From positions 66,334 to 130,333 of the forward strand of contig JBAXUE010000002.1 in NCBI GenBank assembly GCA_037129835.1: DNA of 64,000 nt, read 5' to 3'. The translations under genes and the position numbers were made by a program. This document shows positions 2,059-36,651 of this stretch, piece by piece. The stretch is from a bacterium (GTDB lineage Bacteria; Patescibacteriota; CPR2; UBA1875; CAIMLA01). The notes beneath the pieces are model-generated. The model made no database searches. It was given only the letters and a program-made list of their open reading frames with translations, and was not told where the DNA came from. Each line of letters begins with the position of its first letter. Within the stretch, counting starts at the first letter, position 1.

Positions 2059-2845
2059 TTCACGAAATATTCGAAGGGCTGTTCGTCAACCTTCTCTATA
2101 TTCAAGGACAGAAGAGCCAGCTCCTAAGCCATTCTCTTTCCGTTGGATAATTATCTTCGTTATTTTGTTGTTAATAACTGGGATTATATTTTTAGTATTT
2201 ATTTCTGACGTATTTAGGGTTAATAATGTGGTTTTTTCTCCTACGAAATACATTAGTAGGGAAGAGTTGGAAAAAACTAAGAATAATAATCAGACACTTT
2301 TTGATAATAATATTATTTCTTTTGGCTTTTTTGGTCTGGCGGGAAAGCTTGAGAAAGTGACTGGAGTTTCTAAAATTTCTGTTATTAGAAAAAGCAACCA
2401 TGACATCTATGTAAATATAAAGGAAGAATATCCTCTCTTGGTTTGGCAGACGATGAATAAAAAATATTTGGTCAATAACGATGGAATTATCTGGGCTAAT
2501 TTTGAAGATAAATATGCCAGTGTCCCGATTATAATTGATACCAAGAATGTACCCGTAGAACTGAACTCAAAGGTAATTCCGGGTACCTTTATCTCTTTTA
2601 TTACTGAACTACAGAATAATTTTCCAAAGAAAACCGCTAATACAATTATAAAAATGGAAGTTTTGGATATAATCAGCGATCTTAGGGTCACTACCAAAGC
2701 TGGCTGGTGCGTTTATTTTGATACATCGAGAACTGCCGGTAACCAGATCATAAGCTTGGGCAGAGTTCTAACCGAAGTCGCTGCTAAAAAGCAACCACTT
2801 GAATATGTCGATCTTCGGGTCAGAGACAGAATATTTTATAAGTAG
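2024..2845 (+). CDS. ftsQ: FtsQ/DivIB-like cell-division protein
   Basis: Basic N-terminus, single TM (WIIIFVILLLITGIIFLVFI), POTRA-like segment (FRVNNVVFSPTKYISREEL) and a beta-rich C-domain. Position directly after murG. Start could be 2024 or 2033. Confidence 0.7.
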   Translation: MKKMKISQRRNNSRNIRRAVRQPSLYSRTEEPAPKPFSFRWIIIFVILLLITGIIFLVFISDVFRVNNVVFSPTKYISREELEKTKNNNQTLFDNNIISFGFFGLAGKLEKVTGVSKISVIRKSNHDIYVNIKEEYPLLVWQTMNKKYLVNNDGIIWANFEDKYASVPIIIDTKNVPVELNSKVIPGTFISFITELQNNFPKKTANTIIKMEVLDIISDLRVTTKAGWCVYFDTSRTAGNQIISLGRVLTEVAAKKQPLEYVDLRVRDRIFYK

Positions 2846-2890
2846 GTTCGATGCTCGCTTCGGGGGAGAGGACCACAATATTTGTATAAT

Positions 2891-2912
2891 AATTTATTAA
2901 TATTAATAAATT
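2891..2912. repeat. perfect 22-nt AT-only palindrome AATTTATTAATATTAATAAATT
   Basis: The sequence equals its own reverse complement. It lies 46 nt after the ftsQ stop. Confidence 0.9.
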
Positions 2913-2955
2913 AACTTCTAGGTATAAACGTATAAATGCCATAATGTTAATTTAA

Positions 2956-2993
2956 CTAATTATTTGATAATAATACAATTATCAAATAATTAG
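2956..2993. repeat. perfect 16-bp inverted repeat (CTAATTATTTGATAAT / ATTATCAAATAATTAG) with 6-nt spacer
   Basis: Read directly from the sequence. The arms are exact reverse complements. Confidence 0.9.
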
Positions 2994-2999
2994 TATTTT

Positions 3000-3027
3000 A
3001 CAGTTCAAATAATATATTATGTTAAAC
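3000..3027. other. candidate dif (XerC/XerD) recombination site
   Basis: ACAGTTCAAAT-AATATA-TTATGTTAAAC. The right arm matches the E. coli dif XerD arm TTATGTTAAAT at 10/11, with an AT-rich 6-nt centre. It lies in the only convergent strand-switch gap of the window. The left arm is a weak match. Confidence 0.35.
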
Positions 3028-3456
3028 TATACATTTAACAATTTACTTGCAAAGAAAACTCCAGCCACATACTGCAGAGCTATTACAGATACAGAATAAC
3101 TTTCTCCAATATTTAGGCTTTGCAAAGATATAAACGATGTATTTTTATCGTTTTCTATGACCACTTACACCCCCAAGTCGATATAATCAAATAGTCGTCC
3201 AAGATATATTGTGCGACACAATGCTTCAAGCAGTTCTGGTAGGTAAGGGTGAGGCTATGGTAGTCATCTAAGTATTTAATTAGGTCGACCCATACCGTTT
3301 AGACTTAGGGCGCAGAGAAAAAAGGGGGAACTTCTTTTACTTTATAATGTAACAATTCTATTGTATTTTGATTAAGTAATTGAGTATTTTAAAAATAATC
3401 CCCCCAAAAAAAATTGGATATAATTTGTAATCATAAACGATAACTTAATATATTAA

Positions 3457-22625: not shown

Positions 22626-24428
22626 TTACTTCTTATCGAGTATTTTTACATTTTTTTTAGCATAGTCAGCAGAGAGCATTTTGATCCCCGTATCTTTAAA
22701 AGAAACTCGAATTTCATCATCAGATATTCCCTCTACTTCGCCTATTCCGAAATCAGGATGACTGATAAGATCCCCAACTTCCAAGAAAGTTTCCGACTCT
22801 TCATCGATGTGTTCTACCACAGGTTCTTCGTCTGACCTATCTTCTACTCCTTTAGTATTTCCACTAAATATCGCTCGAAGTATTTTTTCTTCTGACGACT
22901 GAATAGCTTTTTCCTCTTCTACAGAAACAACTGTTTTTTCTACTTCTGTAACAGGTTTCTGGAAGTCATCTCCACCAGGAAGCTCTAGTGCCTTTATCTC
23001 AGGTAGGGCTATGTGACCACCAATATCACCATACATTCCTACAGTATTTGTGAGTACTCTGCTAAGCTGCTTTTCTCTCTCACACCATATCTTTTCGAAA
23101 GCGTTTCGCTCTTTGCGTATACCACTTTCCATAGCTCCAAAAGCCTCTACTATGGCCTCTACCCTTTGTTTAAACTCATTGCCCGTAAGGTATGTATATA
23201 GGTAGTCCATCTTGTCGTTCTTGTTGACTGCCAAGGCCTTCTCTCTATAGACATCCACCAGGCCTTTTCTCAGCACTGTAGCGAGTGCAATAGCATATTT
23301 TAACTCACATACCCAAATCTTTTCTATTTGTACGAATCCATGAGCATCTCCAGGCATAGCTGCTGTTACTATCACTCCGATATCTGCCTTTATAGCCCTC
23401 ATATCTTCTTTTAACTTATCTACCCAACCTGCACTCCAAGACTTGGTTTGCTTGGATTCCCAAGCTATTTTGCCACACAGAGCACCGGCTTTGTTTTGTA
23501 CTAGCTGTACCACATCAGCACCGTTTACACCCTTTGGTACTGGCGCGATAGCGTCAAAAGGAAAAGCGTCGGTTAGCACTTGTTCTAGCTCGAGCTCCTG
23601 AACTTCGCCTTGGGTTTGCATGGAGCCTTGCTCCAGCTTCCTAGCTAGATCGTCCTTTGCCCTGCTGACATTCGATAGCTTCATCTCTAGCTCAGCAATC
23701 TTTTTGTGCTGTTGCTCTTCGGCCTTTCTACCCGCTTCTTCTTGAATCTTCTGACGCTCCTCGTCTAGCTGTCTCATCTTCTCTAGCTCAAAGCTCTGCT
23801 TGTCTTCCTCTAGGGTAATCTTTTGCTTTCGAAGTTCCAGCTCTTTTTCCTGAGCTTTACGGAGCTTCTCGTCCTTTTCATTCATTTGCTCTTGGAAACT
23901 ACGTTTCTCTAGCTCCAGCTCTTTTTGAGTTTCGTCGGCTAGCTCTTTTTTGAGCTCTAGGCGATAGGCCTCAGTCTTCTCGGCGTATTTCTTCTCGACT
24001 TCGAGCTCTATCTTGATTTTTTCCTCTTCTAGCCTAGTCTTTTCTTTTCTGAGCTCTATTTCACTCTCTTGAGCTTTTTCGAGCTTTTCATTTTTTTCCA
24101 AAATTAACTGCTCAAAATTATGTTTTTCTAGCTCTAGCTCTTTTTTTGCCTCTATTGATAATTCTTTTTTGAGTTCTAGCCGATAATTTTCTATCTTTTC
24201 GGCATACTTTATCTCAGCCTCTAGTTCTATCTTGGTTTTCTCTTTTTCTATCTCAGATTCTCTGGTGGCCAGAAGCCTATTAGTCTGCTCTAGCTCATCT
24301 TTTAGCTTTTGCTGTTCACTACTTAGCTCTTTGCGAACCTTTAGTTCCATCTGCTCTTTTAGGATGTCGTCGATGTCTATATCCCAACCGCATTTTGGGC
24401 ACTTAATGTTTTGTTCTGAATCTGTCAT
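22626..24428 (-). CDS. DUF2130-like coiled-coil protein with internal 73-aa tandem duplication and C-terminal Tudor/CarD-like tail
   Basis: N-terminal zinc-ribbon IKCPKCGWDIDID, long E/K coiled coil, conserved C-half (GADVVQLV..., IGVIVTAAMP). The tail VGDLISHPDFGIGEVEGISDDEIRVSF resembles small beta-barrel DNA/RNAP-binding domains. Confidence 0.65.
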   Translation of the reverse strand: MTDSEQNIKCPKCGWDIDIDDILKEQMELKVRKELSSEQQKLKDELEQTNRLLATRESEIEKEKTKIELEAEIKYAEKIENYRLELKKELSIEAKKELELEKHNFEQLILEKNEKLEKAQESEIELRKEKTRLEEEKIKIELEVEKKYAEKTEAYRLELKKELADETQKELELEKRSFQEQMNEKDEKLRKAQEKELELRKQKITLEEDKQSFELEKMRQLDEERQKIQEEAGRKAEEQQHKKIAELEMKLSNVSRAKDDLARKLEQGSMQTQGEVQELELEQVLTDAFPFDAIAPVPKGVNGADVVQLVQNKAGALCGKIAWESKQTKSWSAGWVDKLKEDMRAIKADIGVIVTAAMPGDAHGFVQIEKIWVCELKYAIALATVLRKGLVDVYREKALAVNKNDKMDYLYTYLTGNEFKQRVEAIVEAFGAMESGIRKERNAFEKIWCEREKQLSRVLTNTVGMYGDIGGHIALPEIKALELPGGDDFQKPVTEVEKTVVSVEEEKAIQSSEEKILRAIFSGNTKGVEDRSDEEPVVEHIDEESETFLEVGDLISHPDFGIGEVEGISDDEIRVSFKDTGIKMLSADYAKKNVKILDKK

Positions 24429-25146: not shown

Positions 25147-26121
25147 TTACTTTTGTACATGTTCCTCTCCTTTTGCATGAATTATATTTTCCATATTATC
25201 ATACAGATAAACAAAATATTTTTCTATTTCATTCATTTTATTTGGTAACATATTTTTTGTAAGAGCTGCCGATTCTGCAAAAAACTCTTCGAAATATTCT
25301 GCATATTCAAGAATAAAGTCGTCAGTGAACTCTCCCTTAATTATACATTCATCATAGAGTGGTTTGATCGCCTTTACTCTGGTCTTTAGATATGGGGTAA
25401 AGGGATTATCTATTAGATATCCCATCCCTGGTGGGTTGTAATACATATTGCCTTCGTCATCTTTGATAAAGAAGAACTGTCCGAATTCGGTATTTGCTAG
25501 TATTCCTCGTTCTAGTTGAGCGCCAGTCCCGTTTTCTGTAGCGTAAAGATTTTTAAAATAAAAATGTCCGATTTCATGTGCAAGTAGATATTCGAGTAGC
25601 GCCTCTTCTTTGTTATCTGCTTCTTTTACTACATCTGGCATCTCGTATGGATAGTCATAGGTATCAAATAGCTTTATATCGCCAAAGTGCTCGCTTTCTC
25701 TGTCGGAAATGGCATGTGCCCGTACCCTCAACCACTCATCACCCTCAGGTAGCTCGTTGTTTGCTTTGGCTTTTTCGTATTCTTCCCTGTTATAAAGCTT
25801 CTTTTCATTCTCTATTCCTGGGGTGTAGACATACATTATTACATTATCATAGATTATTTTTGATATACCGACTTTTTTAAAATCCTCTAATTCGTAATTT
25901 CTCGCGATGAACTCCAAGGCGCTCTCTCCTAGATTCTTGTTTTCTTCAAATCCTTCGAAACCGAGATATGCTCGAAAATCATCTAGCTTCTCCTTTGATA
26001 TTTCATCATGAGTTTCCGTATAGACACTACTAGTAGGCGCACTTTCTTTAAGTTTTGTTCTTTCCCACAGCTTACTAGCCTCACGCTCAGCAGGTCCTAT
26101 TGGTAATGGTATATGTTCCAC
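25147..26121 (-). CDS. hypothetical HExxH protein (324 aa)
   Basis: YLLAHEIGHFYF motif. Acidic, with no signal peptide or TM. Confidence 0.55.
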   Translation of the reverse strand: MEHIPLPIGPAEREASKLWERTKLKESAPTSSVYTETHDEISKEKLDDFRAYLGFEGFEENKNLGESALEFIARNYELEDFKKVGISKIIYDNVIMYVYTPGIENEKKLYNREEYEKAKANNELPEGDEWLRVRAHAISDRESEHFGDIKLFDTYDYPYEMPDVVKEADNKEEALLEYLLAHEIGHFYFKNLYATENGTGAQLERGILANTEFGQFFFIKDDEGNMYYNPPGMGYLIDNPFTPYLKTRVKAIKPLYDECIIKGEFTDDFILEYAEYFEEFFAESAALTKNMLPNKMNEIEKYFVYLYDNMENIIHAKGEEHVQK

Positions 26122-26140
26122 TATTATCCTTTCTTTGTAT

Positions 26141-26812
26141 TTATTTCTCTTTCGTCACCAAGAACGGAAAAACTCTGTTCATTTCATCGTTCCGAAGGAT
26201 AAATGCCGCCTCGAGGAAAGTATACAGTAAATCTTTTGTATTTTTCAGTACATCAGCACTACAAAAGACGACGAAATCAGCTTCGTTTATCTCTGAGGGC
26301 GATTGGATGTGGATCTTGTTTCTCAAGTTCTTGAGCTGTTTCAAATCATTTCGATAAAAGGCAAATGACAGCCCGAATGTCTGCTCCTGCGCAGACTTAT
26401 AGAGTAAGCTCTTAAAATCATGGATATCGTCATAGCTGGCACCTGTTTCTTTGTGCTGGATATACAGAATAGACTCTATTATTAGTGCCGATATCAGAAC
26501 AAATGTCTTCACATTCTGCCCATAGAGAGAGCTGGTGAGATATAGCTGCTTGGTGCATTCGTCTAGATAGTGAAGATATTGGAGATTATAGGCGATGTTA
26601 CTAAAAGCAGCATACTTTGGGTCATCATCAGAAAATTCGTAATCTATCAGCCGTGGGAATATAGTACTGCGATAGAAATCTATTGAGTTTGGCAGAAACT
26701 TGTTCGAACCCTCCTCTTTGGAACAAACCCGACACAAGATATTAGGCTTGTCTGGATTGTACAAGTCCTGCTTTACAAAGCCTGAATTGCTGTGTTGTTC
26801 TGTTTTAGTCAT
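26141..26812 (-). CDS. hypothetical alpha-helical protein (223 aa)
   Basis: Intact ORF flanking the DUF262-HNH genes. Contains LKNLRNKIHIQ (see rejected HEPN idea). Confidence 0.5.
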   Translation of the reverse strand: MTKTEQHSNSGFVKQDLYNPDKPNILCRVCSKEEGSNKFLPNSIDFYRSTIFPRLIDYEFSDDDPKYAAFSNIAYNLQYLHYLDECTKQLYLTSSLYGQNVKTFVLISALIIESILYIQHKETGASYDDIHDFKSLLYKSAQEQTFGLSFAFYRNDLKQLKNLRNKIHIQSPSEINEADFVVFCSADVLKNTKDLLYTFLEAAFILRNDEMNRVFPFLVTKEK

Positions 26813-26873
26813 TTTTCCCTTTTATAAAAGAATACATTGTTCTATCTTACTTTGTAAAAAATTATTAACTAAA

Positions 26874-28229
26874 CTAGTCTCTGCCACCCCTTTGTCTATT
26901 ACAATATCGGTGGACTAATCTGGCGTTTGATAGCTTGGTTTCTCCACCTCGCCAGTAAAACTCAATATGATCAACCTCAGAATCGTCTAAAACACGTATT
27001 TTTTGACCACATATTTTACAGGTTGAATCAGTGTCAAAAAGTTGCTTTTTCTCGTCGTGTGAATAGTTTCTTGTCTGTGACTTGGAATAATCTACGATTT
27101 TCCTCAAAGATTCTAGCCATTTCTCAAATCTGTATTGCACATTTTCTGGCTTATCTGTTGATGACTTCAAGGAATCTTCAAATTTCTTGACAGCTGTCAT
27201 TAAGTGTAAAAGTTCTTCGCGAATAGAATCAAGGTGAGGGATAATTTCGTTTTTTTGATACATCGTGAAACCCCACATTACGATGTCAAATAAGCCTTTG
27301 TTTATTTTTGTATTTTCCCACTTTCCGTTTGAGTCAGATTCTTCGCCTACAACAAACCTACGAAAAGCATTGTCACCAAATACTGAGCGAGTTAGGTCAA
27401 CAGATTTTTTAAAAACCTCACGAAGTTCTTTTGCTTTTTCTTCATTTAGATTTTGGTTATTATGCATTTCTTGATTTAGAAACTGTCTCATGGGTGCTTT
27501 GTATTTTAAGTATGAGTTATTATAAAAAGCGAAAAATCGTAATAAAAGCTCTCTATCAATCATTCTTATGGACATAGCTGGTGATTTTAATAATGTTTGA
27601 TATTCTTTATTTTCGGCAAGCTCGATTAGTAAGTCGTTATATTTTCCACGGTAAATACAGTTTCTGAGTTCCTGGTCGTTCAGCTTCACTGCGCCAGTAT
27701 TTAGTCTTTCGAAAACCTCAAATCTAACATTGATATCAGAATCCTTTTTGATTCTGATAAATGGTATAAGATAAGAATCAACTTTTCGCTGTGTTATTTT
27801 GTCTAGTTCCTTAAATGATTTCCTGTTTAGTCCTGTCAAAACCTTTAATCCCGAAAGGGCAAATTTTTCGTGCTTGTCTTGAAAGTACCCGTCCTTAAAA
27901 GAAAAGATAGAAATTAGTCTTTGTTGCCCGTCTATTACTGATTGGGTACCGTCATCTTCTTCGGCAGTGTATATTACTGGTATCGGGACTCCCAAGAGAA
28001 TAGATTCTATCAGTCTACTAGCTTTGCTTTTATCCCAGACATATCCTCTTTGAAAGTATGGTCTTACATCAAGTTCCCCTGCCTTGTAATCAGAATATAA
28101 GTCTTTTATGGCTCTACTGGGGTTGTCAAAGGTAATTCTTCTTTCATCCTCAGGTATATCAAAAACCAGTGGTTCGTTGTCATTATTGTCTTCTTCAAGA
28201 ATAACGTCATTATTATCTATTACCGTCAT
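26874..28229 (-). CDS. DUF262 (ParB-like NTPase) plus C-terminal HNH nuclease, GmrSD-like
   Basis: RPYFQRGYVW...VIDGQQRLISI (DUF262 DGQQR motif). C-terminus CKICGQ...VDHIEFYWRGGETKLSNARLVHRYCN (HNH). Confidence 0.8.
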   Translation of the reverse strand: MTVIDNNDVILEEDNNDNEPLVFDIPEDERRITFDNPSRAIKDLYSDYKAGELDVRPYFQRGYVWDKSKASRLIESILLGVPIPVIYTAEEDDGTQSVIDGQQRLISIFSFKDGYFQDKHEKFALSGLKVLTGLNRKSFKELDKITQRKVDSYLIPFIRIKKDSDINVRFEVFERLNTGAVKLNDQELRNCIYRGKYNDLLIELAENKEYQTLLKSPAMSIRMIDRELLLRFFAFYNNSYLKYKAPMRQFLNQEMHNNQNLNEEKAKELREVFKKSVDLTRSVFGDNAFRRFVVGEESDSNGKWENTKINKGLFDIVMWGFTMYQKNEIIPHLDSIREELLHLMTAVKKFEDSLKSSTDKPENVQYRFEKWLESLRKIVDYSKSQTRNYSHDEKKQLFDTDSTCKICGQKIRVLDDSEVDHIEFYWRGGETKLSNARLVHRYCNRQRGGRD

Positions 28230-28285
28230 AATTCTCCTTTACTTTGATCTATCGTTTTTGCTTATCAAGTTTTTTCATTGGTTCG

Positions 28286-29449
28286 CTATTTATTTCCCTT
28301 GGCACGGTTATGTGTTTTACAAAGCATCTCACAGTTATTGATATCTGTGGCGCCACCTTTACTCCATGCTGTAACATGGTCAGCATCCATTTCGGTAAGA
28401 CTCCAGATTTTTGTCTTGTTGGCGTCGTGACCGATTACGCAATTCGGACAATTTGAAATGCCTTTAGATTTAGCGGTCGTAGTTTGTGACGAATATACCG
28501 CTTTTTTAGTTGCCTCATCAAAAACACGAACTTCAAGTAGTTTCTTTTCATTAGACCCACCTAGAATATATTCAAATATTCCCTTTCGATTTTTTATGTA
28601 TGGGTCTCCATAAAGCTTTTGTACGGCCAATGACACTTTTGCAGGATCATAGGCTTTTGTATGAAATTTTTTATAAAGTCGACCCCAATCCAGGCCTCGC
28701 ATTTCACTTTCAACATCTATAAATACACCAGAAACCCATTCTATTACGCTTTTAAAATATGCTTTTAACTCAGTGATATTGTTATCAAAGCGGTGACGAC
28801 TCATATATTCGCCGTTATTACCACAACTAATCCAGTCTAAGGCTCTCTCTAGAAATTCCTGTCTGTTGGCACTGCCAGTTACATAAGCACTCCATTTTTG
28901 AATGTTGGCATTTTGACTATTACTGAATTCCTCTTTACCAAGTGTGACAAATGGACCAGAATAAACCGCATTTAATAGTTCTTGATTATTTAGCGGTACA
29001 CCGGCAATGTTTATGGTTTTGAACCACTCTTTTATTTCACTTTCTTCGCCCTCGCATTCGTATATAAGAAGCTCAGCGTTCATGATTTTAGCCTGCTTAT
29101 CTGAAGCAATTCCACTGAAGTATTGTTCCATGCCGTTTTCGTCTTTTATGGCAAATTTGTTATAAACGAATCGTCCGATACTAGTGATACGTTGTTGTCC
29201 GTCCAATACTTCTAAGTTGTCAGTGCTCACTTTGTTAAAATATATTAAGCCCAGCGGATAGTCTTTGAGTAATGAGTCAATGACCGCGACGTCTTTTTTA
29301 CCATCAGCATAGATGTAGTTACGTTGATACTCTGGCTGAATAGTGAGCTTGCCAGAGAGTCCGAACAAACCCTTGCCTTCATGCTGGTTATACACAAATC
29401 CTTCACATATATTTCTTACGGTTATGTTAGTTACTAAAGTAGTTTTCAT
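28286..29449 (-). CDS. DUF262 (ParB-like NTPase) plus C-terminal HNH nuclease
   Basis: [11 protein letters not shown]...[12 protein letters not shown]-terminus CPNC...[26 protein letters not shown]. Its start overlaps the methyltransferase stop by 4 nt. Confidence 0.8.
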
Positions 29450-30648
29450 GCTATACCTTTCTTGTGTTTGATTAAAATCCTAGCGAATGGAACCACAACA
29501 GTTTCATCTTTTATCATATATAAATCACCGTTCACCGTTCCTCTTTTTTGCACTTCTTTCCGATACTTTTTATGCTCAGGTTTATACGGTTTGACTCCGA
29601 TGGATAAGCCCAGGTTTGCTATTCCCAAACCAATAATATCAAATTGTTCAGGAGAATATTTGTCAAGGAAACTAATTGGCACGCCCATAATACCCTTAAA
29701 GTCTCCAGGAATATGTTTAACGAAAGGAACTTCTATTGCATTAAAATTATCATAATTATCAAAAGATCTTTTAGTGCCAAATTTTATAACGTCTGACAAT
29801 TTCATTAATGGTAAGAATTCGTGAAGCCTTCCGTGGTCAAGATTAGTAAACCAGCGAACACCTTGGACTCTCGTGATGTAAACTTTCTTACCATTTTCAT
29901 CCGTCCGTATTTCGCGTACTTGCTCTAGATTGGCAATATCTTCTGGTATTTCATAAAACATTGCTCCACCATTCACTTTATGATTATTGCCAAGCCAAAT
30001 CTTGTTATCCTTAATTAATGGAAAGACTTCTTTATAAGTAATAGCGTTCATACTACCAATTATTAAGAACTTTTTTTTGTACTCAATAAGTTGTTTTAAG
30101 TACTCGCGGAACAAACTGAAAGGCGGGTTAGTTACCACTATATCAGCCTGCTTTAGTAGCTCAACACACTCGTTGCTCCGAAAATCTCCGGCTGCGTATT
30201 TATCATCGCCAAGTAAAAGCGAATAAGCATTATTGTCATGTTCTAAAAGCCATTTCACATCATTAAGGTTGGTTATGCCATCTTTATTAAGGTCTGAAAC
30301 CTCATTGATCTCAATTTTAAATGCTTTTTTATTTTTTCGATTAGAAAGTGTCTTATTTTTACCCATTTCTTCGAAACCCGGTATTTGTATCTGTGTTTGT
30401 ACAATCGGCGAACCAACGTAGCTTGTCGTTATCAACTTTTTTAAGCCAAATTCCTTAAATTTATTTGCAAAATACTTGAAGAAATTACTTTCAAATGGGT
30501 CATCGCAGTTGCAATAGACTATCTTGCCGCGAAAAACATCAGGATCGTAATCAATGTAGGCTTGGATTTCCTTCTGAATATCTTGATATTGAGTATAAAA
30601 CTCGTCGTTTTTAGTCTTTTTTGCGTTATGTAAATTTTTTTGTGCCAT
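29446..30648 (-). CDS. EcoRI-methylase-family N6-adenine DNA methyltransferase
   Basis: N-terminus [25 protein letters not shown] is typical of that family. Catalytic motif [11 protein letters not shown]. Confidence 0.8.
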
Positions 30649-30660
30649 TTAAAACCTTAT

Positions 30661-31128
30661 TTATTTTTCAAAGCAAATTGGATTAAATATCTTTTCAGGA
30701 AAATCGTTATCTCCAATTTTATATTTTAATTCACCGTTTGTTCCATGTACTGAATATTTTTCTCGATTGCGCTTTGACACAGAAATTGATTTGACTCCGG
30801 ACTGGCTAGGCCTTAACAACCTCTCAATTTCGTCATAGTTTAAGCAACAAACTCCTGCATCGTAACATACAAGTAGGACAAAAACCTTCTCAAACTTTGA
30901 TTTTAGCTCTAATAGTTTTTCGAGATGATTCTCCGAAAATGTAAAGCTCCAGGGGATTAACCGACTCTCAGTATATTTAACATATAAGCCACTTTCTCTG
31001 AGCTGAGAGAGAATCTTAAAACTAGAATTGTCATCATCAACATAATCACTAACACCAAGACATCTTTGGTCTTGAATTATTTTTAGTAAAGCTGCCCCGT
31101 AATATAGTTGATATTTAAAATTTGCCAT
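30661..31128 (-). CDS. hypothetical protein (155 aa) between the Z1 and methyltransferase genes
   Basis: Gaps of 6 nt and 12 nt to its neighbours. Has D/E...K-containing beta-strand segments (YVKYTES, VFVLLVCYD), but no secure nuclease motif. Confidence 0.55.
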   Translation of the reverse strand: MANFKYQLYYGAALLKIIQDQRCLGVSDYVDDDNSSFKILSQLRESGLYVKYTESRLIPWSFTFSENHLEKLLELKSKFEKVFVLLVCYDAGVCCLNYDEIERLLRPSQSGVKSISVSKRNREKYSVHGTNGELKYKIGDNDFPEKIFNPICFEK

Positions 31129-31134
31129 AATAAT

Positions 31135-33018
31135 TTATCTTAGCCTATAGTTTGCCTTTTTAAGGCTATCTTTAAAATAGTAAACAAATCTACACTTTCC
31201 TGCCTCGTTTCTGATCAACATAATATGGTGCTTTGCATTGGGAAAAGCGACCATTTCTGTACCACCAAAAACACCCCTACTTCTGTATAAAAAGTCCTTA
31301 TATTCAAGGTCATCTGTTTTTGAAACCATTCTTATTGGATGGAATGCTATGTCCTTGTCTGCAGTCATTCCACTGTATACAATAAAATTAATTAGAAATA
31401 GAGGCACCACACTGCCACCGTAAAGCCGGTTAACTTCTTTTAGCTTTTGGATATTACTTATTCCTTTTTTACTAATAATATCTGAAAAAATGCTAGCGTA
31501 ATCAAACATAGGAAAATACATTTCGTTTTTGTCAGTTAATATATTCTTCTTGTCGATACTAGAACTAGAGGCGGGCTTAACTCTTTGGCTTGAAATCCAA
31601 ACTGGTGCTGCACCCTCGTCATTGCTTTTTAATGATTTTAAAGATAAATCATGAAAAATAAAACAACGGTGCCAGTCCTCGAAAAGTGATTTTGGTATTG
31701 AGAGTTCAAAGAAGTCTTTGTATTTGCCTCTACTGCCGAACATTCTAGCTCTTTGGATATAAGTGTCTTGTTGAATCCTGTGTTTAGCAGTTCGTGTGAA
31801 GAACATGCCCAAAAGATTCTTTATTGTTAAGCCCCGGGAAATTATATTTCCACCAATTATTATTGTAAAAAGAGCTGGTGCATTAGTTGGGTCTTCTTCC
31901 ATTTTATTATTTGAGTTAATAACATAAACTTTTTTCTTATTAACATAATCTTTGACAAATGTTGTCACTTCTTTTGCTGCTATATCACCAAATCTTTCTT
32001 CTGCAATACTGTGTATTATTCCAAGGTAACGTTCCCATTTGGGACCCTTATTTGTATCTGCCAGTGCGTCAAAAAAATTATCTACAATTTTTTTATCTCT
32101 TTCGTGTTCACTTTTAATGCCACTTGTATGAATAATAAAAGCAAAATTAACATCATCATTATTCGCATTTTGTTCTACGAGCTTTTCCTTGTACTCGGGA
32201 TTTATATTTAAATAAGAAGCATTAACTAAAAAGCTTGCTAAAGCTTCATGTAAATATGATGGGTCATCTCCATTCTCAGGAAGTATATTCACCATGTATT
32301 CAACTTCGGTTATTTTTTCTAGATTAATTGGAAAAAAAAAGTCTTTGCCTACATAATTTTTATGAGAATCAAAAAATACCCATTCTTCAGATAAATTATC
32401 AAAAGTATTGTTAAGATCTAGTCGTGCTGGAGTGGCTGTTACCCCAACGTAGGTGCCGTCTCTTCGAAGTAATTTGCCGATTTCGTTATTAATTGCCGTT
32501 ACTTCATCTTTATTTATTTTAGAATTTGGGCTGGCATAATCAGCCTCGTCATCAATTATTATTAAACCACTTCTATTTCTTAGTTTTTCGTTTAAATTTG
32601 TTAAATTGCGGATATTTTTCTTTGAAAAAATTATAACCTGCCCATCATTTAAGTCTTCTTCAAGAAAAGCCCTGCTAGACATGGTATCTGGTGTAGGGTC
32701 GATACCTGAACTAGTAAATCTTTCGAGATTTTGAAGTTCAAGCTTTTTATTGTCATTCATGAGAATAACAATAGTGTTGTTGCCAATATCAAGTAATTTT
32801 GCTGTAAGCGATATCATCATTTCGGTTTTGCCACTTTGTGGCTCACCGTAAATCACAAATGATGTTATACCCTTTTGAATTTTTTCTACTGAATCTGAAA
32901 CAGCGTTTTCAATTTGAAAAGTATCAATACCCTTTTTATCTCTAAGGAAATTAATTCTTTTCTCATATCGGCTGTTTCTTCTATTTTCTGAGTCTCTATA
33001 ATCATCTGGATTAAACAT
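31135..33018 (-). CDS. Z1-domain protein with SF2-helicase-like ATPase core
   Basis: GEPQSGKTE (Walker A), IIIDDEADYAS (DEAD-like), VGVTATPARL, GGNIISRGLTIKNLLGMFFTR, DTYIQRARMFGSRGKY. SD GGAGAG before the ATG. Confidence 0.8.
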   Translation of the reverse strand: MFNPDDYRDSENRRNSRYEKRINFLRDKKGIDTFQIENAVSDSVEKIQKGITSFVIYGEPQSGKTEMMISLTAKLLDIGNNTIVILMNDNKKLELQNLERFTSSGIDPTPDTMSSRAFLEEDLNDGQVIIFSKKNIRNLTNLNEKLRNRSGLIIIDDEADYASPNSKINKDEVTAINNEIGKLLRRDGTYVGVTATPARLDLNNTFDNLSEEWVFFDSHKNYVGKDFFFPINLEKITEVEYMVNILPENGDDPSYLHEALASFLVNASYLNINPEYKEKLVEQNANNDDVNFAFIIHTSGIKSEHERDKKIVDNFFDALADTNKGPKWERYLGIIHSIAEERFGDIAAKEVTTFVKDYVNKKKVYVINSNNKMEEDPTNAPALFTIIIGGNIISRGLTIKNLLGMFFTRTAKHRIQQDTYIQRARMFGSRGKYKDFFELSIPKSLFEDWHRCFIFHDLSLKSLKSNDEGAAPVWISSQRVKPASSSSIDKKNILTDKNEMYFPMFDYASIFSDIISKKGISNIQKLKEVNRLYGGSVVPLFLINFIVYSGMTADKDIAFHPIRMVSKTDDLEYKDFLYRSRGVFGGTEMVAFPNAKHHIMLIRNEAGKCRFVYYFKDSLKKANYRLR

Positions 33019-33142: not shown

Positions 33143-33243
33143 ATGAAGAGAGCAGTAATGCCTATGTAACGCCGAGTGGAGGCACCTCGATAGAGGGCCC
33201 GTGAAGCGAGGAGCACGAGTATATAGGTCACCTCTTCTTTTTT
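33143..33243 (+). ncRNA. candidate ~100-nt small RNA (unknown class) between DUF3800 and Z1 genes
   Basis: Starts just downstream of the consensus promoter. Closing stem GAAGAG (33145-50)/CTCTTC (33232-37) is followed by T6. Inner 8-bp hairpin GCACCTCG (33182-89)/CGAGGAGC (33207-14). G+C-richer than its surroundings. The only ORF here (33031..33231 -) lacks an SD. Confidence 0.45.
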
Positions 33244-33877
33244 ATAGCTTATTTTCTAAATATATTAAATTAACTTTTTTACCTAGTTTAGTCAGAGTTT
33301 TTTTATTTCCATACAGGTGACTATGAATAATTCCACATATCTGATCTGCTATTTGTAGATTTGCTTCTTCTGACGTGCCAAAATCAATACGAAAGTCCGA
33401 CTCTGGGTACTCTAGTTTTAGTTCGGTCTCGATAGTTCTTGATAAACCTTCTTTATTAATTAATTTTGTTTTAAAACTATCTAAAGTCACTATAGTCACC
33501 TTTTCACGTTTAAATGTTTTGCTAGATTCAAGCAAAACCTTCTTTACAAGGTTGATGTACAACCTGTCATAGACAAGCTTACTTTTGTAATAATATTTCT
33601 GAGACAGCAGATTCTTGCTCTGAGAAGCAGCGAATACTGTAATCTCAGGTGCTGGACACTCAGGACTAAAGATATATGGCAATATATACAAGTCTGATAA
33701 AGCATTTGAGCTCTTTATTTCACCTTTCGGATAACTGGCAGGTAGTGCCTTCCTCTTAACCTTCTTATACCATTTCGCCGTCTCACCCGGATTTGCAGTG
33801 CTAAAACCGGCCACAGCCATAAACTGATTTTTTGTGCCCTTTTCTAAGTTAAAAGTTTCGTCGATATAGATAAACAT
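33242..33877 (-). CDS. DUF3800-like protein
   Basis: N-terminus MFIYIDETFNL (the IYIDE acidic motif typical of DUF3800). 211 aa. Confidence 0.65.
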   Translation of the reverse strand: MFIYIDETFNLEKGTKNQFMAVAGFSTANPGETAKWYKKVKRKALPASYPKGEIKSSNALSDLYILPYIFSPECPAPEITVFAASQSKNLLSQKYYYKSKLVYDRLYINLVKKVLLESSKTFKREKVTIVTLDSFKTKLINKEGLSRTIETELKLEYPESDFRIDFGTSEEANLQIADQICGIIHSHLYGNKKTLTKLGKKVNLIYLENKL

Positions 33878-34976: not shown

Positions 34977-35546
34977 TTAATGTCCGCCGTAGACAGTGAA
35001 GCCTTTTTGTTTTAGCTCTTCGGCGAGCTTTATCTCGGCCTTTTTTGCTTCTTCTCTATTTTCTATCTTTCCTATCTTGCCGTAGAGGTCTGGGCGGAGC
35101 TTTGGATTGTCTGCCTTTCGGACCTTTACTGATGAGTTCAGCCCTGCCATGTGTTGCTCCAGTCGTATTTCTGGATCATAGATACTTTGCCCGATATATA
35201 TTTTCTTCTCGTTGTTATCTAGTTCGATAGCATATACTTGCCAAAAATCATTCTGGACCATGGGTCCAGCGATAACCATATATTTTTTTGCTTCGAGAGC
35301 GACGATAACCGCTTTTGCGGCCTCTATCGCCTCTTCGGCAGTATCATACTCTGGTAATTCTTTTGTCCATTTGGTCAGATTAGCGGGGTGACGTTCTTTG
35401 CGAACGCTAGTCACAAACTTTTCAAAGGCTTGCTGGTGATTGCTCGTGCCATATCCGACAAATACTTTTTTCTTACCTTGGTCTATTTCAAATACGTTTA
35501 CTATGTATTTATTATCTTCCATTTTTTTGGTCTCCTGTAGCGTCAT
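34977..35546 (-). CDS. GIY-YIG-like domain protein
   Basis: The C-half WQVYAIELDNNEKKIYIGQSIYDPEIRLEQH fits GIY-YIG spacing. The N-half has no assignment. Confidence 0.5.
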   Translation of the reverse strand: MTLQETKKMEDNKYIVNVFEIDQGKKKVFVGYGTSNHQQAFEKFVTSVRKERHPANLTKWTKELPEYDTAEEAIEAAKAVIVALEAKKYMVIAGPMVQNDFWQVYAIELDNNEKKIYIGQSIYDPEIRLEQHMAGLNSSVKVRKADNPKLRPDLYGKIGKIENREEAKKAEIKLAEELKQKGFTVYGGH

Positions 35547-35577: not shown

Positions 35578-36651
35578 TTATTTATCCCAAACGCAGCTAC
35601 TCCCAAAGTGTCCGTGCTTTGCGGTTTCTAGATACATTGGCTTTTTTAGTTTTAGAAAACTGATGATTCCCCGAGGGGTCAAGTCGTACTCGTTCGATCC
35701 CAGTAGGTTTACCTCGGTTCTGTTATCAATAATAGCGATGGCCATCACCGGCTCTGCGACACCGATACTATAAGCAAGCTTCACGAGCACTTCATGGGCA
35801 TTTTCTTTGCGGAGATAGTCTACGGCGATACGGCGCGCCATATAGGCAGCGCTTCTGTCTACCTTCGTGGCGTCTTTGCCACTAAAACAGCCACCTCCTA
35901 TGGGAATCTGAGGACCGTAATTGTCTACTGCTAGCTTGCGACCGGTGAGACCAGTGTCGGCGGTAAAGCCTCCTACTACAAATTCCCCTGTCGGGTTAAT
36001 GTGAATATGTTTTGGTTCAAGTGTTTCCGCTAATATTCTCAGGGGTGTAAAGTCTGCGCCTTCAAGATGCTGGGCACTGATGACTACTGTGTCTACTTTA
36101 CCATTTTCACCCAACGTTACTTGACTTTTCGCATCTGGACCGAAACCTTTCGGTAAATTCTTCATCAGTTGTCTGGCTAAATATAGCTCCTGCGGGATCA
36201 TTTCTTCGTTTTCATCGCAGGCATATCCGACCATGATTCCTTGGTCCCCCGCCCCACCAGTATCTACTCCTTGGGCGATTTCTGGGCTTTGATGAACGAT
36301 ATTTATGTGTATCTCGAGTTCGTCAGAATATCCGATTTCTGAATAAATATTTTGTACAATATTTTTGACGTCTACTTTTGCACATGATGTCACTTCTCCG
36401 GTGATATATATGTGCCCATGACCTCCCATCGTCTCTATCGCTACCCTACTTTCTGGGTCTTGTCTTAGATATTCGTCTAGTAATCCGTCGGATATTTGGT
36501 CGCAGACTTTATCGGGGTGTCCAGGGCTGACGCACTCGGCTGTCCGTATCCCCTTCTTGCTATAATATTCTACTTTTTCTTTTCGCGAGTTTATCGCCGT
36601 CATCGCTTCTTTCACTACTTCCTCCTTTGTCTTACCATGGGTATCGATCAT
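35578..36651 (-). CDS. metK: S-adenosylmethionine synthetase
   Basis: GHPDKVCDQISD, GAGDQGIMVGYA, GGGCFSGKDATKVDRSAAY. Confidence 0.95.
   Translation of the reverse strand: MIDTHGKTKEEVVKEAMTAINSRKEKVEYYSKKGIRTAECVSPGHPDKVCDQISDGLLDEYLRQDPESRVAIETMGGHGHIYITGEVTSCAKVDVKNIVQNIYSEIGYSDELEIHINIVHQSPEIAQGVDTGGAGDQGIMVGYACDENEEMIPQELYLARQLMKNLPKGFGPDAKSQVTLGENGKVDTVVISAQHLEGADFTPLRILAETLEPKHIHINPTGEFVVGGFTADTGLTGRKLAVDNYGPQIPIGGGCFSGKDATKVDRSAAYMARRIAVDYLRKENAHEVLVKLAYSIGVAEPVMAIAIIDNRTEVNLLGSNEYDLTPRGIISFLKLKKPMYLETAKHGHFGSSCVWDK

Follow-up and report, generated by a model that had tools for sequence, protein, structure and literature searches.

When a methyltransferase gene is translationally coupled to a gene for a DUF262-HNH nuclease, does the nuclease recognise its own target, read the methyl mark or act under the direction of the methylase? 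The pair considered here lies in a 64,000-nucleotide stretch of a patescibacterial contig (JBAXUE010000002.1, positions 66,334 to 130,333), hereafter the window. The first-pass annotation of this DNA had proposed that the nuclease is either the R subunit of a novel type II-like pair, blocked by methylation, or a protein that reads the mark as a self signal, and had considered either to be an uncommon use of DUF262. The two genes, referred to as M (methylase) and R (nuclease), and their junction are as follows.

29446..30648, minus strand: M gene, encoding a 400-aa EcoRI-family N6-adenine DNA methyltransferase (open reading frame, Pfam and PADLOC).
28286..29449, minus strand: R gene, encoding a 387-aa nuclease that comprises a ParB/DUF262 NTPase-like domain, a helical middle domain and an HNH domain.
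29446..29461, minus strand: M/R junction, consisting of an SD-like GAAAGG, a 6-nt spacer and ATGA (read from the sequence).

Reading the sequence confirmed the overlap of the methylase stop and nuclease start that had been reported at 29446-29449. On the minus strand, from 29449 to 29446, the nuclease ATG occupies 29449-29447 and the methylase TGA occupies 29448-29446. The SD-like GAAAGG lies inside the methylase gene, at 29456-29461, 6 nt 5′ of the nuclease ATG. The methylase matched the full profile of the Pfam family EcoRI_methylase (PF13651; positions 1-345 of 345, E = 1e-122) as well as the PADLOC model MTase_II (E = 5e-102). The nuclease matched GmrSD_N/DUF262 (E = 1e-21) and HNH (PF01844; E = 1e-7) in Pfam, and the PADLOC REase_II model PDLC03418 from end to end (positions 7-372 of 372, E = 8e-84). 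The Pfam matches and the motifs NPPF, DGQQR and D-H thus upheld the first-pass assignment of an m6A methyltransferase and a DUF262-HNH protein. A search of NCBIfam yielded no model for either protein, and PDB sequence searches with both gave no meaningful match.

The pair is part of a seven-gene same-strand run between 33018 and 25147; the gaps are short, and no terminator-like site was found on that strand over this interval. The pair's region is slightly AT-rich, with a GC content of 0.34-0.37 versus about 0.39-0.43. It looks like a defence island, and the surrounding genes fall outside the conserved module. None of the other window neighbours recurred beside the pair among related loci, and no ssp genes were present among the nuclease's neighbours.

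The extent of the pairing was evaluated in a scan of one genome per species, in which at least 583 species genomes contained a relative of the nuclease. The analysis covered the best 80 loci, which are those most similar to the window's nuclease; more divergent nucleases, which possibly track methylase types, lie outside them. Each protein search gave at least 8000 candidates within the E-value limit, in two separate clades. Of 73 evaluable genome loci, 72 had an EcoRI-family methylase upstream of the nuclease; the junction was tight in 64 and interrupted by inserted genes in 8. The adjacency is thus not peculiar to this genome, a possibility that the first-pass annotation had allowed for. Specifically, 64 of the 80 loci had both genes on one strand and a junction that measured between -4 and +8 bases, and 28 of those had the exact 4-base overlap. 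The eight interrupted loci carried one to three mobile or accessory genes between M and R: RhuM-like, Bro-N-like, T5orf172/GIY-YIG, IS200-type transposase, PIN-like, and nucleotidyltransferase with Fic. One locus (L073) had a decayed methylase, another (L048) had no methylase within 3.2 kb, and six of the 80 ended too close to a contig end for the presence of a methylase to be judged. Overall, the pairing of M and R is far above chance.

The pair is also widely dispersed. A metagenomic contig of 372 kb carried an exact copy of the nuclease, and relatives of approximately 80% identity numbered in the thousands, in Patescibacteria, Bacteroidota, Chloroflexota, Spirochaetota, Cloacimonadota, Proteobacteria and Firmicutes. 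A second nuclease clade, of 360 aa and 37-41% identical, was likewise paired with EcoRI-family methylases. Plasmids also carry the pair, in Firmicutes, Actinobacteria and Proteobacteria; their hosts include Enterococcus faecium, Moraxella, lactic acid bacteria and actinomycetes. One phage, Flavobacterium phage laban6-1, has it too. Some of the plasmids that bear it are resistance plasmids. In Cloacimonas loci, M and R were the only genes common to the different contexts; most of these loci were beside an integrase and one had quite different flanks. M and R therefore constitute a conserved mobile cassette that spans phyla, plasmids and a phage, and the pair ranks among the most widespread M-R pairs of uncultivated bacteria, CPR/Patescibacteria included. 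The description of the pair as novel, and of its use of DUF262 as uncommon, did not survive these data: in addition to its presence in the species genomes counted above, it is already represented in PADLOC, and the BanLI system, to which we return below, has been published. The locus adds another copy of a very abundant R-M cassette that has already been catalogued.

The nuclease contains the following elements.

29189..29203, minus strand: DGQQR motif (residues 83-87), predicted to form the centre of nucleotide binding in the DUF262 domain (read from the sequence).
28289..28450, minus strand: HNH nuclease domain, residues 334-387, with CxxC...CxxxC and the predicted catalytic D357-H358 (Pfam, alignments and structural matches).
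28376-28381, minus strand: D-H motif of the HNH domain (read from the sequence).

The nucleotide-binding role of DGQQR is taken from published work (PMC4619093, PMC12065111). The motif was invariant in alignments A1 and A3, which cover the two clades and a neighbouring paralogue. Across the same proteins, the ParB/DUF262 motifs QR (Q42, R43), D83-G-Q-Q-R87 and F143xxxN147 were invariant or nearly so, as were the HNH residues C334, C337, D357, H358, N372 and N381; the Pfam HNH match spans residues 347-387. An initial AlphaFold model of the nuclease, based on a shallow alignment of 80% identity, had a pLDDT of 56 and a disordered middle domain, and was discarded. Adding the second clade to the alignment gave a model with a pLDDT of 81. 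This predicted structure was similar to BrxU, the best structural match, and to SspE and CTP-bound ParB domains, and its C-terminal part matched HNH domains. The middle domain is a plausible DNA-binding module (PMC12065111). The literature searched contained no biochemical study of this nuclease family.

The DUF262 N-terminal domain and the structural similarity to BrxU would fit a GmrSD-like, modification-dependent type IV nuclease, for which the adjacent methylase would have no functional meaning. GmrSD and BrxU are stand-alone proteins that use a DUF1524 nuclease to cut modified DNA, whereas R shares only their DUF262 N-terminal domain, carries a zinc-binding HNH and is nearly always paired with a methylase. 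Indeed, the C-terminal nuclease belongs to PF01844 rather than DUF1524, with no Pfam match to GmrSD_C (DUF1524) in that region; none of the GmrSD/BrxU-type models of PADLOC matched the nuclease, while REase_II did. Above all, the linkage to the methylase is near-obligate among evaluable loci, holds across clades and includes translational coupling. We regard the type IV interpretation as extremely improbable.

The features of the methylase that bear on target recognition are listed below.

30118..30129, minus strand: predicted catalytic NPPF motif, residues 174-177 (AAC CCG CCT TTC in the reverse complement), within a conserved block of the 69-sequence alignment.
29869..29988, minus strand: cassette V2, residues 221-260, a putative half of the target-recognition element (low column conservation).
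29494..29628, minus strand: cassette V3, residues 341-385, a putative second half of the target-recognition element (low column conservation).

In the alignment of 69 sequences, the core blocks of the methylase (residues 1-80, 161-220 and 261-340) are conserved, and V2 and V3 are swapped wholesale. Column conservation in V2 was 0.29-0.38, versus 0.78-0.83 in the flanking blocks. In V3, it was 0.18-0.23 across residues 341-380, after which follows the conserved tail Y-x-R-I-L-I-K-H-K-K. The swaps are in frame, between the anchors W-x-G and TNLDHGRRH for V2 and between SPEQF-x-I-x-G and the conserved tail for V3. Single-linkage clustering over-merged the V2 types, and average linkage was used instead. 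It resolved 11 types of V2 and 25 types of V3 among the 69 loci, with identities of 73-80% inside a type and 17-21% across types. The types were extensively reassorted: 49 different V2 × V3 combinations occurred in the 69 loci, every V2 type was paired with several V3 types, 13 V3 types were paired with several V2 types, and 10 four-gamete quartets were found between the two cassettes. The window's V2 type was common to eight other loci and its V3 type was also found in a Cloacimonas methylase and in clade-B methylases; its combination of the two was unique in the sample.

Segments that are discrete, unrelated to one another and recombined independently inside an otherwise conserved methylase characterise target-recognition elements, as in the S subunits of Type I systems and the Mod subunits of Type III systems. 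Because V2 and V3 behave in this manner, we infer that they are the specificity determinants of the methylase. A different explanation is that all members of the family share one target, that the V2 and V3 surfaces diversify under pressure from phage anti-restriction proteins and that R has a fixed specificity. The uniform conservation of R would be consistent with a single specificity. However, the cassettes are discrete, mutually unrelated, of differing lengths and independently recombining, a pattern that characterises the target-recognition domains of Type I and Type III systems, and EcoRI-family methylases are known to have diverse targets, namely GAATTC, RTCAGG and CTAT (PMC3990576, PMC3536716). 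A shared target thus appears very unlikely. An analysis of observed and expected k-mer frequencies in 784 kb of host flanks revealed no target site, only the generic avoidance of palindromes (GGCC, GATC and ACGT); RTCAGG was not depleted in these flanks (O/E 0.94-1.0).

The nuclease presents the opposite picture. Among the loci most similar to that of the window, its pairwise identity had a median of 80% (73-97%) and its length was 386-390 aa in 82 of 82 copies, versus a median identity of 62% (42-95%) and lengths of 345-410 aa for the methylase. Of the two partners of an orthodox type II system, it is usually the restriction enzyme that evolves faster. The pattern of evolutionary rates in this pair is the reverse. 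Moreover, the identity between nucleases was 80.3-82.4% whether the cassette types of their methylases were the same or different. Three pairs of nearly identical nucleases (L027/L028, L004/L037 and L032/L040) had methylases with unrelated cassettes: nucleases of 96.7%, 95.3% and 94.6% identity adjoined methylases in which V3 or both cassettes were unrelated. Cultured strains such as Flavobacterium xanthum DSM 3661 (L052), Cytophaga aurantiaca DSM 3654 (L034) and Lacihabitans CCS-44 (L062) likewise combine a near-identical R with differing cassettes. In 69 sequences, a number in which a few specificity-determining residues could escape detection, no nuclease column was associated with cassette type above the permutation maximum. 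In the methylase core, 13 columns exceeded this maximum for V2 and 3 columns for V3.

These results bear directly on the reading under which REBASE and PADLOC file such pairs, that of a classical, IIS-like type II system in which R and M read the same sequence independently and methylation blocks R. The separate adjacent genes, the full-length match of R to REase_II, the description of BanLI as an incomplete type IIS system (PMC3990576) and the possible DNA-binding function of the middle domain (PMC12065111) are all consistent with it. However, R would need as many specificities as M, yet the R proteins are approximately 80% identical and almost free of indels, no R residue is associated with the 11 × 25 cassette types, and R proteins of 95-97% identity occur with unrelated cassettes. 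The invariant NTPase motifs are likewise not expected in an orthodox type II enzyme, for which Mg2+ suffices and no NTP is needed. For the classical reading to hold, either co-varying residues, of which none were detected, or cassettes without effect on specificity are needed.

A further point against the classical reading is that intact R genes persist beside M genes that are absent, truncated or frameshifted (L048, L073, L095 and L099), as expected if R alone were harmless. It is also possible that a compensating methylase is encoded elsewhere or that the assembly is in error; most of the loci come from metagenome-assembled genomes, and some of the broken methylase genes could be assembly errors. 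Taken together, we consider a classical type II system to be unlikely. The earlier proposal of a type II-like R subunit was therefore borne out in part: R is indeed the partner of a protecting methylase, as indicated by the conserved mobile cassette, the PADLOC match and BanLI, while the label type II-like is probably too simple for a nuclease that does not co-vary with the cassettes.

The absence of co-variation between R and the M cassettes argues against independent sequence recognition by R. If V2 and V3 set the target, a single, near-invariant R serves dozens of specificities and cannot read those sequences. R thus probably takes its target from the methylase without itself reading the target sequence. 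A constant R and a variable M would also be compatible with an SspE-like mechanism, in which R senses N6-methyladenine in any context as a generic self mark, such that methylated DNA switches R off and unmarked DNA is nicked or cut. In SspE and GmrSD, the DUF262 domain serves as a sensor of modification (PMC12065111), and the model of R resembles SspE and BrxU. Nevertheless, a generic reader provides no selective reason for the combinatorial diversification of the cassettes, and any invader that carries m6A would escape. The methylase core also co-diverges with the nuclease clade (A-A 73%, B-B 62%, A-B 55%), which suggests a specific partnership and not a generic reader of a mark. The chance that R is such a reader is, in our estimation, small.

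Since R is almost invariant and the M cassettes are combinatorial, R is most likely guided by M. Our preferred interpretation, which we hold to be somewhat better than an even prospect, is that the locus encodes a BanLI-type R-M module in which M sets the target, R is directed by M and cleavage by the HNH domain is gated by NTP. According to this scheme, M would place N6-methyladenine on the host DNA at a short site, with V2 and V3 setting the specificity. On encountering an unmethylated site, M would recruit or activate R, as Mod does Res in Type III systems. R, lacking sequence specificity of its own, would attack the DNA without the mark: the binding or hydrolysis of a nucleotide at DGQQR, the ParB-type site, would be the switch that licenses the cut, and the HNH domain would cleave the DNA. 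Host sites that are methylated or correctly hemimethylated would be ignored. The translational coupling of the genes may serve the joint production of the M and R subunits.

More tentatively, and with somewhat less than even confidence, we suggest that the BanLI-like family is a distinct class of R-M systems that has been mis-filed as type II. In this class, M would supply all of the specificity and the constant R would act only through M, reproducing the logic of Type III systems with unrelated proteins; a ParB-like nucleotide switch may stand in for the helicase-like motor in communication along DNA. The combination of a constant nuclease and shuffled cassettes predicts a methylase-guided, NTP-gated mechanism that is absent from current classifications. 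If correct, it would represent a fourth solution, beside Types I, III and IIG, to the placing of specificity in M together with a constant R. It would also provide a compact, two-protein scaffold whose specificity could be reprogrammed by swapping cassettes.

Comparison with known systems places the pair between several of them. M.EcoRI belongs to the same Pfam family as the methylase, but R.EcoRI is a PD-(D/E)XK homodimer that reads GAATTC alone and is unrelated to the DUF262-HNH nuclease. SspE, of about 770 aa, differs from R in having a DUF1524 nuclease and in responding to a phosphorothioate mark made by four proteins; the PADLOC SspE models did not match the nuclease, and the neighbouring paralogue alone matched them, weakly. 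NsnA of the Menshen system gave a partial match to the nuclease in PADLOC (residues 33-222, E = 1.5e-27), and PADLOC found neither NsnB nor NsnC near the locus.

The similarities to the Type III systems EcoP15I and EcoP1I are more extensive. In both cases, the nuclease gene follows that of the methylase in tight coupling, the recognition elements that vary are confined to the methylase while the nuclease is constant (here judged from the sequence pattern), and the conserved nuclease subunit carries an NTPase, which is predicted in the present case. In addition, BanLI, the only relative to have been characterised, places its methyl mark on a single strand of an asymmetric site. The proteins themselves are unrelated: M is of the EcoRI family and not a Type III Mod, and Res combines an SF2 helicase with a PD-(D/E)XK nuclease whereas R combines a ParB/DUF262 NTPase with HNH.

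The closest counterpart is BanLI, described in Bifidobacterium animalis subsp. lactis in 2014, in which the gene order is integrase, banLI.M (41.7 kDa) and banLI.R (43.5 kDa) (PMC3990576). Its methylase was aligned to M.EcoRI by its authors and methylates RTC(6mA)GG on one strand only; in E. coli, the cloned system decreased the plating of P1vir about tenfold (PMC3990576). In a 2026 paper, the restriction enzyme that REBASE lists for the RTCAGG motif (Ban8145ORF124P) is the product of a gene whose annotation reads 'DUF262 domain-containing protein' (PMC13091528). The published descriptions thus match the present pair in having M upstream of R, an EcoRI-like M, a DUF262 R of approximately 43.5 kDa and a type II filing, and the integrase beside BanLI recalls the Cloacimonas loci. 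The literature searched did not identify the REBASE enzyme behind PDLC03418, and a search seeded with a homologue from a Bifidobacterium choerinum plasmid returned metagenomic proteins only, with no named B. animalis protein. RTCAGG need not be the target of the present locus, because the methylase cassettes differ among family members. BanLI was interpreted as an incomplete or crippled type IIS system, a second methylase being missing (PMC3990576), whereas the family-wide data presented here point to one methylase as the norm. The EcoRI-like M.MpnI likewise modifies a single strand of its asymmetric site, CTAT (PMC3536716). If R is guided by M as proposed, the one-strand methylation by BanLI would be explained as the normal state of such a system, with no second methylase having been lost.

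The pair formed by the EcoRI-family adenine methyltransferase (M) and the DUF262-HNH nuclease (R) lies among seven successive minus-strand genes at 25147-33018 that overlap or are separated by gaps of 6-61 nt. No terminator-like site was found on the minus strand within this interval, and the seven genes may constitute one long transcription unit. The GC content of the island drops to 0.34-0.37, as compared to approximately 0.39-0.43 in the flanks. Just upstream, on the minus strand, are genes encoding a DUF3800 protein (33242-33877), a GIY-YIG protein (34977-35546) and S-adenosylmethionine synthetase (35578-36651). Further features near the pair were as follows:

22626-24428, minus strand: DUF2130 protein, 600 aa, approximately 4 kb from the pair
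25147-26121, minus strand: ORF, 324 aa, after the NsnA-like gene
26141-26812, minus strand: ORF, 223 aa, after the NsnA-like gene
26874-28229, minus strand: second DUF262-HNH gene (NsnA-like), 451 aa, 56 nt 3' of the R gene

The DUF2130 protein combines a long N-terminus rich in Glu and Lys with a CarD/Tudor-like stretch at its C-terminus. In another locus carrying an R relative, a DUF2130 gene (L048:1944-3260) occurs immediately 5' of a nuclease gene that has no methylase.

Among loci with R relatives, the M-R junction is interrupted in L011, L018, L020, L041, L065, L070, L078 and L086, with L039 and L080 being contig-edge cases. Usually one accessory or mobile gene, oriented as M and R are, sits between the two: Bro-N-like (four cases), RhuM-like, T5orf172/GIY-YIG, an IS200-type transposase or a PIN-like gene. 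One locus has a three-gene insert encoding a nucleotidyltransferase, a membrane protein and Fic. This junction appears to be a preferred site of insertion.

The complete pair, with its 4-base overlap kept, is carried by Flavobacterium phage vB_FspS_laban6-1 (L092:2781-5143), where it has been inserted beside the tape-measure gene, on the opposite strand; the phage nuclease is 78% identical to that of the window. On plasmids, antibiotic-resistance genes surround the pair in Enterococcus faecium pBN83-1 (optrA and erm(A); L090) and Macrococcoides canis pMiCAN82a (mef(F) and msr(G); L093). Plasmid 2 of Variovorax sp. PBL-E5 bears a pair of EcoRI-family methylase genes (L094:719-1747, 2426-3442) ahead of a single nuclease gene of clade B, the second R clade, which is 37-41% identical to the clade of the window's nuclease. 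This arrangement could reflect methylation of both strands or two specificities sharing one nuclease.

Finally, the 451-aa protein encoded downstream of R shares only 27% identity with R. The PADLOC profile for NsnA, the sensor of the Menshen (NsnABC) defence system, matched this protein almost end to end (E = 1.7e-91). Searches of the nearby genes with PADLOC detected neither NsnB nor NsnC, and the 223-aa and 324-aa ORFs had no family match. The NsnA-like protein contains an HNH domain of its own and may represent a stand-alone NsnA-HNH fusion system.
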